From Promethearchaeota archaeon (GTDB lineage: Archaea > Asgardarchaeota > Heimdallarchaeia > Hodarchaeales > Hodarchaeaceae), in assembly GCA_048938105.1 (NCBI GenBank), contig JBHLMN010000021.1, positions 41,699 through 105,698 on the forward strand: a DNA stretch of 64,000 nt, read 5' to 3'. Positions 34,279 to 41,777 of the stretch are shown here, one piece after another. The notes below the pieces were generated by a model. It saw only the letters and a program-made list of their open reading frames with translations. It was not told where the DNA came from and searched no databases. Within the stretch, counting starts at the first letter, position 1; every line of letters begins with the position of its first letter. Position numbers and translations under genes: made by a program.

Positions 34279-35187
34279 TTAATCCTCTGGTTTCTCAAGT
34301 AGATGTTTCCCACTAAAGATTCCGAATTCACCAACAGTCGCAGTTGTTTCAACGGGTCTGTACCACCTTTTTGTTGCTCCTATTCTCGCTCTGGCACGCC
34401 AACTACGGTTTTTAGGCATTTCCTTAAAGTAAGTGAGTATTTTATCTATCTTTGTTTCGACTATATTACATTGCTCTTCAGAAAGTTCCTTGAATTCTGG
34501 TAAAACATTCTTAATATTGGCTAGGTTTATGGTTATTGTGTGATAGAATCCCCAAGCATATGCTCCTTTTCGTAAATACTTATCACCAATATATTTGATA
34601 TTTATTGTCTCAGGTGTGTCATCGTACCCAATATCATGAGCTAGCAATAACATTATAGTATCAGCAACATCTTTATAGTTCATAAAAACAATTTGAGTTT
34701 TACCGAGAAACAACTCAGCTAAAGGAAGAGTTGGAGAATCTAATTTCAATCTTTTATGATCTAATTCAATATCATGATTAAATTTTATTTTACCATAAAA
34801 GACATCACAAAACCACCAGTTTTTTGGATGAATGTAAATCCGACGTTGACTGGCAGCTGTAGATAATGTAGGTTTTCGCTTAGCATAACCCATTTTTTTC
34901 ATGAATTTATCCATGTTTTTCATATGTTTATAAGAAATAGCTCCGTCTATATCAGTAATTTCACTTGTATCGTCACCTAATCGTTTTAAGCTTTTGTATA
35001 AATCCTCTAAGTCATGTACTTGACAATGAATGCGAATCGCTAATCCGCCGACTAATCTAAAATGGACACCAAGTTCTTCAGCTTGGGATACTAATTTCTT
35101 GGCTTCTTCCATAAAAACTGCAAGGGGAATAATTCCACCCCATTCCTCTGGTAAATCAACTGGTACGCCCTCTTTTTCTTGTAACAA
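34279..35187 (-). CDS. Pol-beta-superfamily nucleotidyltransferase-like protein
   Basis: LVGGLAIRIHC, ITDIDG, CDVF, TLPLAELFLGKTQI, KDVAD. Confidence 0.7.
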   Translation of the reverse strand: MLQEKEGVPVDLPEEWGGIIPLAVFMEEAKKLVSQAEELGVHFRLVGGLAIRIHCQVHDLEDLYKSLKRLGDDTSEITDIDGAISYKHMKNMDKFMKKMGYAKRKPTLSTAASQRRIYIHPKNWWFCDVFYGKIKFNHDIELDHKRLKLDSPTLPLAELFLGKTQIVFMNYKDVADTIMLLLAHDIGYDDTPETINIKYIGDKYLRKGAYAWGFYHTITINLANIKNVLPEFKELSEEQCNIVETKIDKILTYFKEMPKNRSWRARARIGATKRWYRPVETTATVGEFGIFSGKHLLEKPED

Positions 35188-35301: not shown

Positions 35302-37041
35302 CTATAGTGTTTTGATTATTTTTTCTTCATTAGGAGTTATCTTGTAGATTGAATATACTGTTTCATTAATATATACTTTTAATTGTTTGAGTACTTCATA
35401 ATTAATCATTATCTTTTTATATTGTGCATTTTGTAGACCTGATATTATGGGAGAATTTGAGACTCGTGATAAATGGTGAAAGAGTCTCTTATAATTTTGA
35501 AAATCGCTTTTTCTCTGGTTAAATAGAGGAAACTTGCCTTTTTTCATTATTTGATCTAAATGAGTTTTTAATTCTCTCCCAGTCTGTTGATATTTAAAAT
35601 AAATTTCACCTAAGGTATAGAATTTTTCAATAATCGGTAGTGAATTTATTTGCTTCATTATTTCTTCATAGTTGTTTTCTTCAAGAAGTTTTTTCAGCTT
35701 TTTTCGATACACATGGTTTTTTGATCCAGAAATATGCGGAATCCTTATTGAATTTATATAAGCTCTGTCAAAATCTTTGCTGGTTACAAATTCTTTCACA
35801 TAAACGGCATGACGAAGCCACCATGCAATAAATGATGATTCTAGTAAACCTGCAACGGCATAAAGGGATATTTTTTCTCTTGAATAATTTGGAATGATGT
35901 TGATTACAGTTTCATTAGTTAAGATTTCACCTTCTCGATCGACCCAAGTTTTTAGGTCTAAAGAATAACTGGGTTTTGTATGATAGGATATTATCCGTTG
36001 CGCAATGATTTTCGGTATTTTTAATCGTTTGAGTTTTTGTTTTGGGGTCTTCTTATGTAAAAAATTTCGTCTTGGAAATAAAAAGCCAGATGAAATGGTA
36101 GACTTTTCTACTAGTGGAATGTTTCCATCTTTTGAACGGTATTTGCTACTCAATCCTCGAAAAGCAAGTACATTCAAAAATTCATGATCCTTACAATAAA
36201 TCCGCCGAATAATCTCCAATTCAGAGGCACTCACTCCTACCAGAAGATTTTTTACCATTAATGCGTCAAAGTTTGAAATTAAACTTATTTGTCCAAAATC
36301 CTTATCAATTGGATTCCAGATTCCAGTTTTATACTTATAATGTTGACCATCTAAATTCTCTTTTTTGACTATTATAGCACACTGTTCTTGTAATTGACCT
36401 GAGAATTGATTTCCAAGATCAAGAACTTCGACTAATTTGTAGTCAGTTAAAAGAATTTTTCTGAACTCAACCCATCTTTTGGAATAGATAATAGGTTTTG
36501 GTAACAAAAAACAGAGGATACCTCCAACTTTCAAAAGAGCTAGAGATTTTAAAGTAAAGAATATGGAACTTTCGGAGTAAATTTGACGATTCCATCCAAA
36601 ATGGCAATTTTTTCGAATTTGTGTCCACTCAAATTGTGAATAAAGTGCATTATGAGGGGGATTCCCAATAATGACATCAAATGTTCTTGGTAGGTCTGAA
36701 GGGTAATCTAAAAGAAAGTCTCCCAGTTTTAGTTCAAAATCTAAAGGAAATCTTTGATTTAACTTATTTAATTTATCATTAGTAATCTTCACTAAAGAAG
36801 AATCTATATCTAATCCATACATTTTCATAGAATAGACTAATGAGGTAATCAATGGAATTAGAATCTGAAAAAAAATCCCTTTGCCAATTGCAGGATCTAA
36901 AACTGTTATTGGTTTTTTTTGATAATCATTTGGAAAGTAATATGTTATATGGCTTAGAAGCGCCTCCACTAATGTTTTGGGGGTAAAGTATTGTCCCCTG
37001 GCTTTCCTTTTACTGTTATTATCTTTTATTCGAACTCTTAT
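35302..37041 (-). CDS. N6-adenine methyltransferase-like protein with NPPH motif IV; start extended to putative ATA 37041
   Basis: LDPAIGKG and FDVIIGNPPH. The in-frame upstream extension encodes SKRKARGQYFTP (motif X), which the ORF track omits (it starts at GTG 36969). Confidence 0.8.
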   Translation of the reverse strand: MRVRIKDNNSKRKARGQYFTPKTLVEALLSHITYYFPNDYQKKPITVLDPAIGKGIFFQILIPLITSLVYSMKMYGLDIDSSLVKITNDKLNKLNQRFPLDFELKLGDFLLDYPSDLPRTFDVIIGNPPHNALYSQFEWTQIRKNCHFGWNRQIYSESSIFFTLKSLALLKVGGILCFLLPKPIIYSKRWVEFRKILLTDYKLVEVLDLGNQFSGQLQEQCAIIVKKENLDGQHYKYKTGIWNPIDKDFGQISLISNFDALMVKNLLVGVSASELEIIRRIYCKDHEFLNVLAFRGLSSKYRSKDGNIPLVEKSTISSGFLFPRRNFLHKKTPKQKLKRLKIPKIIAQRIISYHTKPSYSLDLKTWVDREGEILTNETVINIIPNYSREKISLYAVAGLLESSFIAWWLRHAVYVKEFVTSKDFDRAYINSIRIPHISGSKNHVYRKKLKKLLEENNYEEIMKQINSLPIIEKFYTLGEIYFKYQQTGRELKTHLDQIMKKGKFPLFNQRKSDFQNYKRLFHHLSRVSNSPIISGLQNAQYKKIMINYEVLKQLKVYINETVYSIYKITPNEEKIIKTL

Positions 37042-37049
37042 CCCAACCT

Positions 37050-39041
37050 CTAAACATTTACCGCATTAAGATTTTCCAATTGTTTCTGGAGAGCATAAGC
37101 AGTATAGGTTTTTCCAGTAAGAACGTTTCCACTCATAATAATTAAACGGTGACGGTTTTGACGAATCTTATTTGCAATTTCTTGCACTCTTTTGTTGAAG
37201 TCAGGATCACGTGTTGAGACTTGAATTAATTCAAATTCTCTTGATGTAGATAGAGCTTTTGGGTAAGTTTGAAATAAATCCTGATAACGTTGAAAAATAG
37301 AGAGGTCAGCATCACTTTTTTTGATAGAGGATTTTTCCTCATCACGAACTTGTGAATTAAGTTTAGCCTCGTCTTTTGTTGCATTGGTGTTTATGTATAA
37401 TGGACGATACTTTCTAAATCTGTTTCCCAATGATTCTCTATGATTAGGATGAGTGGGCATGTTGAAGTTTGTGCCATCAAAAAAAACAATGCTTGATTGA
37501 TCTTTACGAAGGATACAGAGAATAAGCCATTTAGCCAGTATATATGTATGCTCATTTTCCCAAGATACATACTCAGGAAAACCTCCTCGGTATAGCTTTC
37601 TTATGTGATCAGTTGATACCACACGAACTTGTCGAGTAATACGTGTTACACATTGGGAAATGATTTTGTTTAGATTTTCAAGTATAGGAATGAGATTACG
37701 CTTTTGATTGATATGGGGTTTAATTTCTACTCTTTCACGAATTATTTCTAGGCAAATTCCAATGAACTCTCTTTCAGAGGCAATTTTTTTGTTTATTTGA
37801 AAATATTGAATAATATCCTCACCATTAATTGCGAGATCTGTTAAATTGATGGGCTGGTGAATCCTAGCTCTCTCCATGATATCTATCCATAATTTTCTTG
37901 ATAATCGTCTTTCTTTTTCTAAGGCCGCTTCTTTAGCGTGATAGAACATTAAATAATCGCTTAAATAATCAGGTTTGATTTTATGTTGGAATTTTCGTAT
38001 TATATAGTTTTTTACATCTTCTTGATCTTCTATAGAATAGGGAAGGCGCAATAGATGTATTGATAAGATATGAGATACTTCTGTAATCTGTTTATTAGAA
38101 CATTTCATGCGTTTCAAGAATTCACGAACAAAATTTTCTTGGAATGGGGGAAAAAGCTTTGTAGATTTTGTAGGGATATTAGATATTTGATGAATTAATA
38201 CTGCAAAGCGTAATCTTAAAGGAGAATCTTTCGTAAGTTTTGAAACTATCCGCAAAGTAAGTTCTGTTCTATTCAAGTTTGAACCTTGTATTTTTTTTGA
38301 AAATTCTTCATGATTAAATTCTGGTATCAGATGAAATAAAAATCCACATTCTCCTAATAATTGAATAGCTTTCTGAAAATAAGTCCCTTGTAGTAATTTT
38401 TGAAATTCTGTATGGATTCTTTCTTTTGCTACTTTAGAAAAAACATCAAAATGCTGTGGAACTGCTTTTAAAGTTTTAACCTCGATATTAAAGCCTAATT
38501 GGGCAACAAACCTAAAAATCCGAATTAATCGTAATCCATCTTCTCTTAAACGCTCATGGGGATCACCTACCATTCTTAGAATTTTAGCTTCGATATCCTT
38601 AATACCTTCAAAGGGATCAGAGAGTATATTATTAATTGGATCATACGCTATTGCATTAATAGTCAGATCGCGTCTGGATAAATCCTCTACTATATTACCA
38701 ACAAAATGAACATCTGAAGGCCTTCGACCATCAAAATATTCTCTCTCAACTCGAAAAGTTGTTATTTCTATCGATAGATTATTATACAGAATAGTAACTG
38801 TTCCATGTTTAATTCCTGTTGGGATAACACGAAATTTCTTCTCAAAAAGCATTATAACTTCAGGAGGTTTAGCATCTGTTGCAATATCCCAATCTTGGGG
38901 ATTTATTTCTTCCAGAATTGCGTCTCGAATTGATCCACCTACAATAAAAGCCTGAAATCCATGGTTGGTTAATAATTGACAGACATCGATTATTTCGATC
39001 GGAAATCGATCTTTTACCAACATTGGAAGAAACACAGCCAA
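37050..39041 (-). CDS. cca: Class II CCA tRNA nucleotidyltransferase fused to a C-terminal circularly permuted P-loop kinase
   Basis: VGGSIRD, QDWDIAT, DLSRRDLTINAIA, EDGLRLIR, KERI..EF.KLL. The C-terminus has VVSTDHIRK, VFFDGTN and, last, LIIMSGNVLTGKT. Confidence 0.85.
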   Translation of the reverse strand: MAVFLPMLVKDRFPIEIIDVCQLLTNHGFQAFIVGGSIRDAILEEINPQDWDIATDAKPPEVIMLFEKKFRVIPTGIKHGTVTILYNNLSIEITTFRVEREYFDGRRPSDVHFVGNIVEDLSRRDLTINAIAYDPINNILSDPFEGIKDIEAKILRMVGDPHERLREDGLRLIRIFRFVAQLGFNIEVKTLKAVPQHFDVFSKVAKERIHTEFQKLLQGTYFQKAIQLLGECGFLFHLIPEFNHEEFSKKIQGSNLNRTELTLRIVSKLTKDSPLRLRFAVLIHQISNIPTKSTKLFPPFQENFVREFLKRMKCSNKQITEVSHILSIHLLRLPYSIEDQEDVKNYIIRKFQHKIKPDYLSDYLMFYHAKEAALEKERRLSRKLWIDIMERARIHQPINLTDLAINGEDIIQYFQINKKIASEREFIGICLEIIRERVEIKPHINQKRNLIPILENLNKIISQCVTRITRQVRVVSTDHIRKLYRGGFPEYVSWENEHTYILAKWLILCILRKDQSSIVFFDGTNFNMPTHPNHRESLGNRFRKYRPLYINTNATKDEAKLNSQVRDEEKSSIKKSDADLSIFQRYQDLFQTYPKALSTSREFELIQVSTRDPDFNKRVQEIANKIRQNRHRLIIMSGNVLTGKTYTAYALQKQLENLNAVNV

Positions 39042-39176: not shown

Positions 39177-41777
39177 ATGTTCCGATTATATTCAAGTTTA
39201 AAACCTTTTTACGAAAGATTTCTCCAGAGAGGTCAGTCTTATGGACTATCTTCTCATGAAATCCATGAAATGGCCTTAAACTATTTTATTAAATTTCTAG
39301 GGGTGATTATATTAACATCATGGGAGAGTCGGAACACCAACAATATGATTTTACTCGCAAATACTCGTAAAATTAGAATGTCAATTCATGAAATTTTATT
39401 TCAGAAAGATAGTCAGAGTGTGCAACTCTTCATAAACGGAATACCTTCCATACTCCAGGAGATACTCGAATTATCACATCAAGAGGCCCAATTTAAAGAT
39501 TCATTAACATCTGAAGAGTGGGATGAACTCATAGAGTTACTTCTTGCAAATCAATGGACGATAGCTGAAACTTTTAAAAGTGTCAAAGGGAACGAAAAGC
39601 AAATTTCTCCTGAATTTCTTTCTTATTTTTATGAAAATGTTCTAAATGATTTTGAAAATTTTTTCAGTTTAACTCCGAAAGTATCTAAGAGAAAACATAA
39701 AGGGGTTTATTATACTCCTTGGCGTATCATCCGTGAGATTACAGATAAGTGTCTAGACCACTATGAGTCTAAAAATTCTCAACTGTCTCAAAGTAAGGGG
39801 AAGTATATAAGAATCCTTGACCCAAGCTGCGGAACAGGGTCATTTCTTGTTTATAGTGCAGAAAGCCTTTATCAACGATTAAAAAGGAATATTAATCCAA
39901 ATATTTCTCCTTACAAAATTGTTGAATGTTGTATTTATGGGACAGACCTTTCTTCAAGTAGTTTAACAGTTGCCAAAATTAGATTATTGTTTTGGATTCT
40001 TAATTTAAACCCTAATACTTTAGGTTCACTTCCCTATTGGCTATTTAGAAACATTTGTGCTGGAAACAGTTTATTCGGGCTTTGTAAAGAGAGAATTCAA
40101 TATCCTCTGGACTATTCTACAACTCTTTCACGAATCAACTTGTATTTAGAGACAGATTATGAAAAGAAACATGATGAATTTACTGGAGTAGATGAAAACT
40201 GGCTTAAATCTAGTCTTAGAATCAAACAGGCAAAAACTAAGCATCTGTCTTCTAATTCACATCTAAATGTGATTCACAAAGCAGAGAAAGAGCTTTCATC
40301 TCTCGTAAATACTTTTTATCAGAATTGGTTAGAAAATCGGATACGTAATTATCCACGTCCCGTCCCTCTAAAGAGAAAGGAATTAGACACAATCATTCCA
40401 TTTCATTGGGGAATATCATTCCCCGAAGTGATTCTACAAGGTGGATTTGATGTAATAATAGGAAATCCTCCCTATGGAAGATCAATCCTTTCAAAATTGG
40501 AAAAATCTCTGTTGAAATTAGTGTATAAATCATGTTCGGGTCAAAATCCTAAAAAGTATAGCTTAAATGCTGCCAGCGCTTTTGTTGAAAGATCTATTAC
40601 TCTTTTAAGACAATACGGAACATTAGGTTTAATTGTACCTTTCTCTATTCTAAGAGTAGAGGAATTTGAAAATCTGCGTCATTTTATTCTAGAAAGAACG
40701 ATGATCTGGAGAATTGATGATGAATCAGCTGCTTTTACTGATGTTACTTTAGAAATGTGTTCTATCTTCTTATTTAAGAGAATTGAACCTGATTATGAAG
40801 TTTCCATTAGTCCTCGACCAGAAATTAATGCAGAACCAAGTGTTCATATCAGTGTTTTCAAAAAATACAGCCGCTATATGATCTATTACAATAATTTATG
40901 GGATAAAGCAGCCAGTCAAGGGTTGGTCATGAATGGAGTTGTAAGTGGTGACTACGGAATAGACCACAGAATTTTAAAAAAGGACTTAAGTTCAAAATTT
41001 ACCCCAAAATACCCTATTTGTTACTTACACTCTGGACGAAGTGTGGTAAAATTTGCATTAAATCCTCAGTATTTCCAGTGGTCAAAACCTCATCCAACTA
41101 ATGAACGTTTTACAACTTATTTTCGAGAACCTCGTCTAGTGACTACAGCTATCGGTAATCGATTTAGAGTCGCTTATAAACCAGAAAAAATTGTACCAGG
41201 TACCAATGTTTCTATCTTAGAGATTGGAAATTCCTATCACTACTTTCCTATGCTTATTCTATTAAATTCTGATCTTATAAATTATCTTTTAAAGAGATAT
41301 ATTCTTAATTTTAGTCACTTAACAGTTTATCTTCATAAGTATTATACAAAAATGCTTCCAATTAAATATCCTCGAGAATTTGAAGAGGAATTCAAAATCC
41401 TCGCTAGTTATCTTATTTTTCTCAATCAAGCTAATCTCTGTGGGAAGTTATCTACTGATAAACGATTTGAATTTATATTTAACCTAGCAAATTATTTGGT
41501 TTTTGATCTTTATTTCCCAGAAATTCTAGGGATTTCTTCAAATTTAGCGGTTAAAGTTAGAAAATATTTGAAACCCATTGAAATAGAGTCCTTTCTTGAT
41601 CTAATCCTCTTTCAGGAATCTGAAACTGATCCAAAAATGTTATCACGGATAATTAGTTCTAATTGGAGGATTATTCGCCATGTCTCCAATCGGTTGAGAG
41701 ATGATGAGGAAGTACATCAGTATAAAAAGACTATATTTAACCATGAAATTGTAAGATGTATTCGTAAAGAGCTTTAA
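39177..41777 (+). CDS. Large N6-adenine methyltransferase (Eco57I/TaqI-like)
   Basis: RKHKGVYYTP, LDPSCGTGSFL, GNSL, FHWGISFPEV, GFDVIIGNPPY. Confidence 0.9.
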   Translation: MFRLYSSLKPFYERFLQRGQSYGLSSHEIHEMALNYFIKFLGVIILTSWESRNTNNMILLANTRKIRMSIHEILFQKDSQSVQLFINGIPSILQEILELSHQEAQFKDSLTSEEWDELIELLLANQWTIAETFKSVKGNEKQISPEFLSYFYENVLNDFENFFSLTPKVSKRKHKGVYYTPWRIIREITDKCLDHYESKNSQLSQSKGKYIRILDPSCGTGSFLVYSAESLYQRLKRNINPNISPYKIVECCIYGTDLSSSSLTVAKIRLLFWILNLNPNTLGSLPYWLFRNICAGNSLFGLCKERIQYPLDYSTTLSRINLYLETDYEKKHDEFTGVDENWLKSSLRIKQAKTKHLSSNSHLNVIHKAEKELSSLVNTFYQNWLENRIRNYPRPVPLKRKELDTIIPFHWGISFPEVILQGGFDVIIGNPPYGRSILSKLEKSLLKLVYKSCSGQNPKKYSLNAASAFVERSITLLRQYGTLGLIVPFSILRVEEFENLRHFILERTMIWRIDDESAAFTDVTLEMCSIFLFKRIEPDYEVSISPRPEINAEPSVHISVFKKYSRYMIYYNNLWDKAASQGLVMNGVVSGDYGIDHRILKKDLSSKFTPKYPICYLHSGRSVVKFALNPQYFQWSKPHPTNERFTTYFREPRLVTTAIGNRFRVAYKPEKIVPGTNVSILEIGNSYHYFPMLILLNSDLINYLLKRYILNFSHLTVYLHKYYTKMLPIKYPREFEEEFKILASYLIFLNQANLCGKLSTDKRFEFIFNLANYLVFDLYFPEILGISSNLAVKVRKYLKPIEIESFLDLILFQESETDPKMLSRIISSNWRIIRHVSNRLRDDEEVHQYKKTIFNHEIVRCIRKEL

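Follow-up and report, generated by a model that had tools for sequence, protein, structure and literature searches.

A circularly permuted P-loop kinase domain at the C-terminus of a class II CCA-adding enzyme in Hodarchaeales

Based on profile searches, structure prediction and homologue comparisons, we describe a gene of a Hodarchaeaceae archaeon whose product joins two enzymes in one chain. The gene occupies positions 37050..39041 on the reverse strand of a 64,000-nucleotide stretch (the window) of contig JBHLMN010000021.1 (Promethearchaeota archaeon, assembly GCA_048938105.1, contig positions 41,699 to 105,698), and its open reading frame encodes 663 aa when counted from a TTG codon, ending at a TAG (37050-37052). 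By their sequence, residues ~1-440 are a complete class II (bacterial-type) CCA-adding enzyme, and CCA addition by the fusion is predicted. The last ~200 residues are almost certainly a circularly permuted P-loop kinase domain of the clade of PSTK, Kti12 and polynucleotide kinases (the 'DxTN' or AAA_33 clade). From the N- to the C-terminus the motifs of this domain run TDHIR, FDGTN, lid NxxxR, SDA and lastly GNVLTGKT. In PSTK (3A4L) and Kti12 (6QP0) Walker A comes first, whereas in the fusion it comes last; Clostridium thermocellum Pnkp (4GP6), T4 Pnk (1LTQ/1LY1) and Pnkp1 (4XRP) likewise keep the canonical order of elements, unlike the fusion. An earlier sequence-only reading of this DNA had claimed that a permuted AAA_33/PNK/PSTK/Kti12-type kinase is fused here to a full CCA enzyme, and this structural claim is borne out by four independent tests: hidden Markov models (HMMs) matching in swapped order, the sequence re-permuted in silico, a predicted structure compared with known folds, and the conservation of the motifs. 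The kinase domain comprises the following features, located by profiles, alignment to canonical relatives and an AlphaFold2 (AF2) model.

37158..37640 (-): kinase body in permuted order, from beta2 to the last canonical helix (profiles, AF2)
37599..37613 (-): T477-D478-H479-I480-R481, the catalytic Asp and substrate-phosphate Arg (DxxR), invariant and aligned to canonical relatives
37467..37481 (-): F521-D522-G523-T524-N525, the Walker B-like hhhDxTN, invariant and aligned to canonical relatives
37308..37358 (-): lid N562...R566 and S576-D-A578, aligned to the canonical RxxxR and SDA
37053..37157 (-): transposed beta1 - P-loop - alpha1 unit, residues 629-663

The body begins with beta2 (472-475), TDHIR, a helix, beta3 with FDGTN (518-525) and beta4 (547-552), and continues through the lid helix with its NxxxR, SDA, beta5 (605-608) and the last canonical helix (615-628). 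A linker of four residues leads from this helix to beta1 of the transposed unit, which the AF2 model resolves into strand 633-637, Walker A (G638-T645) and helix 644-662; the stop codon follows 18 residues past T645. The strings on which the sequence-only reading relied were all located in the protein, VRVVSTDHIRK at residues 472-482, VFFDGTN at 519-525 and LIIMSGNVLTGKTYTAYALQKQL at 632-654, and its placement of GxxxxGKT is exact (G638-T645, nucleotides 37130-37107). Conservation was assessed in 29 aligned homologues, which share 44-71% overall identity with the fusion and down to ~41% in the kinase domain alone. Invariant throughout this set are T477, D478, H479, R481, F521, D522, T524, N525 and H531, together with N562, R566, S576, A578 and the P-loop residues G638, N639, V640, L641, G643 and K644. 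In the lid RxxxR, R566 stands invariant as the second Arg; at the first position is N562, an invariant Asn that aligns to an Arg in canonical relatives. Every nucleotide-binding and catalytic motif is thus kept except the first lid Arg, and in all homologues the chain ends 12-23 residues past GK[ST].

Searches with the domain in its native order see little of this relationship. The native kinase domain has no match to Pfam AAA_33 at E<=10, the Walker A-first order of that family being absent, and the domain is an AAA_33 homologue with altered topology rather than a member by the Pfam model's definition. Pfam and NCBIfam searches with the native C-terminal domain and its pieces returned no AAA_33 and noise only (SIR2_2 at E 0.03, for example), the last 64 aa gave weak P-loop matches only, and phmmer of the domain against PDB sequences gave nothing meaningful. 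Foldseek of the kinase-domain model against the PDB yielded no match at E<=0.001, a result that is expected because the aligner is order-dependent and the fold is permuted. A shape search of the ESM Atlas with the domain reached a template modelling (TM) score of 0.59 to a viral AAA_17/ADK/AAA_33 cluster.

The relationship emerges from profiles read in both directions. A domain profile built from the 29 homologues (A2) and searched against 1.8 billion representative proteins matched, besides the fusion and its fragments, ~30 stand-alone proteins of ~200 aa. All six canonical matches that were scanned are AAA_33 by Pfam (E 1e-21 to 1e-28), and the secondary Pfam matches of the canonical relatives are KTI12, Zeta_toxin and 6PF2K. 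Most canonical relatives were matched in two stretches whose order is swapped relative to the domain profile: profile positions 185-212, which contain Walker A, correspond to protein residues ~25-53, and profile positions 27-150 follow directly at ~54-175. Conversely, an HMM of the canonical relatives aligned its positions 49-193 to residues 471-629 of the native fusion (P0001) and its positions 12-49 to residues 622-656; the two pieces meet at position 49 of the profile and tile it in swapped order. The C-terminal P-loop piece alone matched the N-terminus of the canonical-kinase HMM with an independent E-value of 1.3e-07. Moving the C-terminal unit in silico to the front of the domain, a check that the sequence-only reading had itself suggested, restored a single contiguous match: with residues 629-663 placed ahead of 467-628, positions 24-191 of the HMM were aligned at 65.4 bits (independent E-value 7e-22). 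This experiment was scored against an HMM and alignment of canonical AAA_33 relatives in place of Pfam itself. In profile-profile alignment (hhalign) the native domain scored 140.4 over 141 columns, beginning past the template's Walker A helix, and the permuted one 193.8 over 165 columns, beginning at the template's beta1.

Structure prediction points the same way. The AF2 model of the kinase domain is confident and compact (predicted local distance difference test, pLDDT, 85; predicted TM score, pTM, 0.82), with strands at 28-31, 74-78, 104-108, 161-164 and 189-194 in domain numbering and a C-terminal strand and helix modelled at a pLDDT of at least 90. Domain residues 25-186 superpose only on the part of PSTK, Kti12 and polynucleotide kinases that follows their Walker A helix, and the C-terminal segment supplies the fifth strand. 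The model strongly implies that strand 633-637 is central in the sheet, lying between beta3 and beta4, because the slot between these strands is free, the segment is assigned as a sheet strand and the confidence is high.

The N-terminal two thirds of the chain carry the head, neck, body and tail of a class II CCA-adding enzyme, and a long helix connects them to the kinase.

38574..38951 (-): class II nucleotidyltransferase head, residues 31-156 (Pfam PolyA_pol PF01743, 125 bits, E 2.9e-36)
38313..38495 (-): neck or RNA-binding region, residues 183-243 (Pfam PolyA_pol_RNAbd PF12627, 51 bits)
37722..38312 (-): CCA body and tail, residues ~244-440 (NCBIfam PRK13299 alignment, Foldseek 1MIV)
37647..37703 (-): long connecting helix from the CCA tail to the kinase, residues 447-465 (DSSP of the AF2 model)

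The PolyA_pol match of 125 bits compares with a cut-off of 23. The alignment to PRK13299 pairs residues 20-439 with profile positions 12-380 of 396 and scores 275 bits, slightly below the equivalog cut-off of 290. The class II motifs GGSIRD (GGxxRD), DWD (DxD) and RRD of the head and EDGLR (EDxxR), the template motif at residues 167-171 just before the neck, are recognizable, and their residues G35, G36, R39 and D40, D50 and D52, R123, R124 and D125, and E167, D168 and R171 are invariant in the 29 homologues. A full-length AF2 model of the fusion (pLDDT 89, pTM 0.83) has as its best Foldseek match the Geobacillus CCA enzyme 1MIV (E 5e-19; TM 0.82 by target), whose whole 395-aa chain is covered at 27% identity; the Planococcus, human mitochondrial and Aquifex/Thermotoga CCA enzymes come next. 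The Bacillota class II enzymes (1MIV; Planococcus 6QY6) are thus matched in head, neck, body and tail by residues ~1-440, but they stop after the tail at ~370-400 aa, whereas the fusion runs on for ~220 more residues. The start codon is probably the ATG at residue 7 (39023), giving a protein of 657 aa, because the homologues and a 657-aa database copy (P0002) begin at this methionine.

How widespread is this architecture? We searched 399 Asgard genomes. A full-length kinase domain was found in the window genome, in 17 of the 20 others of its family and genus (f1/g1) and in 0/378 genomes of other families, where the matches are weak only and fall on canonical AAA_33 proteins of ~195 aa. The search for the same fusion in other Asgards that had been suggested from the sequence recovered full-length copies within this family, and the homologues carry the source labels Hodarchaeota, Hodarchaeales or Heimdallarchaeota. 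Two of the genomes in which the same fusion architecture occurs are single contigs (G065, G067). A local misassembly, which the sequence-only reading had named as grounds for abandoning its claim, is excluded in practice by 43 independent database proteins and the 17 other genomes.

The host of the fusion has an unusual CCA enzyme complement. No class I CCA enzyme was found in the window genome, which is 99% complete, and its class II genes are two: the fusion and a 395-aa paralogue (L002; G000:C42, 823-2010 (-)) with 41% identity to the fusion over the head. Their flexible-loop regions read SSKGSPEV in the paralogue and YFDGRRPSDV in the fusion. Nearly every genome of the family has such a paralogue, of 385-414 aa. 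Among 80 genomes of the class that were surveyed for CCA enzymes of either type, this family (f1) nearly always has both class II genes, without class I; families f4, f7, f3 and f5 have kept class I; and the sister family f6 has a single class II gene of 450-540 aa with 41-44% identity to the head and neck of the fusion. When a kinase and methyltransferase neighbours were looked for at the class II CCA genes of f6, neither was found. An encoded CCA is absent from at least 11 of the 15 tRNA genes found in a quick scan of the window genome. The fusion is probably a housekeeping CCA enzyme, because it scores higher than the paralogue with the CCA model (275 versus 177 bits). One genome of the same GTDB genus (G057) departs from this pattern: it alone in the genus has a strong class I match (133 bits), and no class II gene, fusion or 866-aa methyltransferase gene (see below) was found in it. 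Either this genome is a genuine exception or, with 7% contamination, it reflects a problem of binning.

The same pattern, no class I and two class II enzymes, is described for Hodarchaeales CCA2 A and B paralogs in the accessible text of a preprint by Cassidy et al. 2026 from the Mörl and Prohaska groups (bioRxiv 10.64898/2026.05.29.728689), which reports Hodarchaeales with class II enzymes only, often as A and B paralogs. According to that text a Hodarchaeum class II enzyme adds the full CCA in vitro, the paralogue assayed being unstated there; the C-termini were trimmed as 'variable', and the words kinase and P-loop are absent from it. That assay, together with the missing class I enzyme of the window genome, speaks indirectly for CCA addition by the fusion. 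The 395-aa paralogue may correspond to the preprint's 'B paralog', or it may be a variant, CC-adding or of some other kind.

Permuted kinases of this type are not confined to the fusion. Three proteins from outside Hodarchaeales (P0064, P0075 and P0076) match the domain profile co-linearly and, because of this, can be taken as permuted too. P0075 (211 aa; L032 1593-2228 (+)) and P0076 (209 aa; L030 3571-4200 (+)) are stand-alone proteins on short metagenome contigs, both with a C-terminal Walker A and the second ending in GVPLVGKS and a helix. The gene for P0076 has a RecA/AAA_24-like gene on one side and a Fic gene on the other, a phage-like context. P0064 (1535 aa; L029 1826-6433 (+); metagenomic) contains a permuted AAA_33 kinase at residues ~636-811, in which Pfam finds AAA_33 profile positions 29-134 first and the N-terminal, P-loop positions after them. 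Directly upstream of this kinase stand two HAD_PNKP (PNKP phosphatase) domains, both over the gathering cut-off. Phosphatase and kinase are paired in this way in end-healing enzymes, and among the indirect evidence this is the best hint that the permuted clade has a polynucleotide substrate. P0064, which may be of viral or eukaryote-like origin, also has MIB_HERC2 repeats, and its gene adjoins a SUI1 gene. In a tree of re-permuted sequences all permuted forms fall on one side of a branch (SH-aLRT 95). They may have a single origin, a view weakened by the very long branches of the three non-Hodarchaeales rows and by artificial junctions that may bias the alignment. The closest canonical relatives are bacterial AAA_33/KTI12-like genes of ~200 aa (L051/L052 5001-5606; the 63-kb contig of P0054). 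Canonical relatives are twice followed by a 400-450-aa gene of the Lactamase_B fold, near trmD and the mraZ-ftsZ cluster, and one adjoins Sua5; these contexts point to RNA in a way that is suggestive at best.

What might a permuted kinase do at the end of a CCA-adding enzyme? Our best explanation, which we hold to be reasonably probable, is a CCA enzyme joined to a catalytically intact permuted kinase that phosphorylates the RNA held by the CCA part, most likely at a 5'-OH end. The C-terminal beta1 - P-loop - alpha1 unit would slot between beta3 and beta4, restoring a 2-3-1-4-5 sheet and the ATP site in cis. The CCA body would supply tRNA binding, as C-terminal domains do in PSTK and Kti12; those enzymes bind tRNA through a C-terminal domain of their own, whereas the fusion has a whole CCA-adding enzyme as its N-terminal partner. 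With ATP as donor, the kinase domain would then phosphorylate a hydroxyl of RNA, most probably at a 5'-OH end of RNA or tRNA, so that the enzyme would repair or inspect the acceptor stem at either end, with CCA at the 3' end and phosphate at the 5' end. The most plausible origin of the permutation would be a canonical kinase duplicated in tandem, with its outer halves lost afterwards. That the kinase domain acts on RNA or tRNA at all is reasonably probable; that it is specifically a 5'-OH polynucleotide kinase is a tentative and somewhat doubtful proposal. A two-ended role in RNA repair or quality control, as the sequence-only reading had suggested, is made somewhat more likely by P0064, in which a permuted kinase is combined with PNKP-type phosphatases. 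A role as PSTK was considered and rejected. The best match in the genome to the PSTK model TIGR03574 scores 35.7 bits against a cut-off of 290.5 and lies at another locus, and a part in the Sec pathway is rejected with it, SepSecS (PF05889) giving marginal partial matches only in the genome.

The domain might instead be a Kti12-like tRNA-dependent ATPase that gates, proof-reads or releases the tRNA without transferring phosphate to RNA. We regard this as unlikely. The Asp of the DxxR motif is the general base in PSTK and Pnk, and in the fusion this residue, D478, is invariant together with R481; moreover, the permuted relative P0064 is paired with PNKP-type phosphatases, as true end-healing kinases are.

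A different proposal looks beyond the fusion to its neighbours. The fusion stands between two methyltransferase genes, and this three-gene arrangement is kept in 11/11 Hodarchaeales genomes (L033-L042), with more distal genes differing.

39177..41777 (+): Eco57I/TaqI_C-type N6-methyltransferase of 866 aa with NPPYGRS, upstream of and divergent from the fusion, in 11/11 genomes
35302..37049 (-): Eco57I-like methyltransferase with motif IV NPPH, downstream of and co-oriented with the fusion, in 11/11 genomes

Across these genomes the upstream methyltransferase measures ~860-870 aa and the downstream one ~530-610 aa, the latter with NPPH as its motif IV in 10 of the 11. Both match generic MTase_II, IIG, PglX, DrmMI and MAD2 models only, below curated cut-offs. 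Prediction of a complex between the kinase domain and the NPPH enzyme scored 0.00, an outcome that speaks neither for nor against binding. The conserved GQYFTP of the downstream enzyme (motif X, which binds S-adenosylmethionine) lies upstream of its first canonical start, GTG 36969 (36969-37066 (-)); the frame is open from 16 nt inside the 3' end of the fusion and holds no ATG, GTG or TTG before motif X. A canonical start before motif X is also missing in the nearest relative (G067), and a normal start is present in nine other genomes; in G064 the methyltransferase is in-frame with the fusion, with a single TAG between them. The module may, in some genomes, be translationally coupled to the downstream methyltransferase or read through into it. 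Beyond that gene, a 302-aa open reading frame (34279-35187 (-); group F7) adjoins the module in 6 of the 11 genomes and has no match in Pfam, NCBIfam or PADLOC.

The fusion and its two neighbours might accordingly form a lineage-specific conflict or defence module, in which the repair of nuclease-damaged tRNA, or modification of tRNA ends by the fusion, comes under the control of the methyltransferases, much as PrrC is embedded in a type I restriction-modification cassette. The constancy of the arrangement despite differing wider flanks, the overlap of the downstream methyltransferase with the stop of the fusion in three genomes, the finding of full-length 866-aa gene orthologues in fusion-carrying genomes only, the resemblance of the methyltransferases to type IIG, PglX, DrmMI and MAD2 methylases, and the sister family's class II CCA genes without kinase and without methyltransferase neighbours all speak for it. 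The co-occurrence count is weak, however: adjacent genes are lost together in fragmented or incomplete assemblies, and related genomes are non-independent. The module is also near-universal and vertical in the family, the mean pairwise identities of the three genes moving in step (54, 53 and 45%), in contrast to the patchiness of defence islands; no partner nuclease came to light, and the fusion has no match among the PADLOC defence models. Finally, apart from the 385-414-aa paralogue there is no other complete CCA enzyme in the family, which makes the fusion a probable housekeeping enzyme. We therefore judge a conflict module improbable, and the same low probability attaches to the wider idea that a single-chain, two-ended tRNA enzyme, phosphorylating the 5'-OH or another acceptor-end hydroxyl of the tRNA it holds, makes up with its two flanking methyltransferases a lineage-specific module of Hodarchaeales that serves tRNA surveillance or conflict.

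It is more improbable still that the domain is a small-molecule or nucleotide kinase (a nucleoside mono- or diphosphate type, or a zeta-toxin-like sugar-nucleotide kinase) whose fusion has nothing to do with RNA ends. Matches within 1-2 Z units in fold comparison do include chloramphenicol phosphotransferase, zeta toxins, and gluconate, uridylate, adenylate and shikimate kinases, and feature-based look-alikes are AAA_33/Zeta_toxin clusters (0.87-0.89; leads only). Against this stand the hhhDxTN and DxxR signatures, the fact that the nearest canonical relatives score best on PSTK and Pnkp models, the presence of a tRNA enzyme on the same chain, and P0064, where a permuted kinase is paired with HAD_PNKP domains. 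Lastly, a non-functional relic (a kinase minus its Walker A, plus the stub of a second copy) or an assembly or annotation artefact is near refuted: duplication and truncation are the likely origin of any such permutation and the native kinase sequence is without a Pfam match, but GNVLxGK[ST] and the other motifs stay invariant down to the lowest domain identities, the terminal unit is confidently modelled as a sheet strand and helix, and 43 proteins and 18 genomes, independently assembled, share the same ending.

The reading that we prefer, an intact permuted kinase acting on RNA held by the CCA part, has partial precedents. The E. coli CCA enzyme with its HD phosphohydrolase shows that a second end-healing activity can reside on a CCA chain. 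That enzyme (NCBIfam PRK10885, to which the fusion has a weak, partial match) carries an internal HD phosphatase/phosphodiesterase that removes phosphate, whereas the fusion carries a terminal P-loop kinase predicted to add it. Polynucleotide 5'-kinases are partnered by a 3'-phosphatase or a ligase, whereas the partner here is a CCA-adding enzyme and the activity on 5'-OH ends is putative. Nor is permutation as such foreign to P-loop NTPases. The permuted GTPases YlqF/RbgA, YjeQ/RsgA, YqeH and Lsg1 work with permuted motifs and act on RNA (cf. PMC1262696). They belong to the TRAFAC class, with the order G4-G5-G1-G2-G3 and the P-loop in mid-domain; the fusion, in contrast, belongs to the kinase class and has its P-loop at the extreme C-terminus. 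The host of the fusion, unlike the Bacillota that encode 1MIV and 6QY6, is an archaeon and has lost its class I enzyme.

The sequence-only reading knew of no described example of this architecture, and within the searchable literature that statement is upheld: we found neither the CCA-kinase fusion nor its permuted kinase described, nor any report of a permuted member of the P-loop kinase class. Already known, from the accessible text of the preprint, is the class II CCA enzyme in Hodarchaeales, the kinase domain not being described there (bioRxiv 10.64898/2026.05.29.728689). New here are the reciprocal HMM tiling, the distribution of the fusion by family in comparison with CCA enzymes of class I and class II, the permuted relatives, one of them fused to PNKP-type phosphatases, and the invariant neighbourhood of three genes.

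What are the implications for the organism and its lineage? Hodarchaeales are frequently regarded as the archaea most closely related to eukaryotes. The lineage has swapped an archaeal for a bacterial CCA enzyme, a replacement that is now discussed in connection with eukaryogenesis (bioRxiv 10.64898/2026.05.29.728689); if the enzyme assayed in that study is the fusion paralogue, an unnoticed kinase domain was present. The strict linkage to two methyltransferase genes makes the fusion part of a concrete three-gene unit. Within that unit, one chain joins 3'-CCA synthesis to a predicted ATP-dependent activity of the tRNA/RNA-kinase clade. As far as the literature we found goes, this would be the first case in nature of a circularly permuted member of the P-loop kinase class, one in which the nucleotide-binding unit is supplied from the extreme C-terminus, and it offers a clean natural test of how much rewiring the oldest nucleotide-binding fold tolerates.

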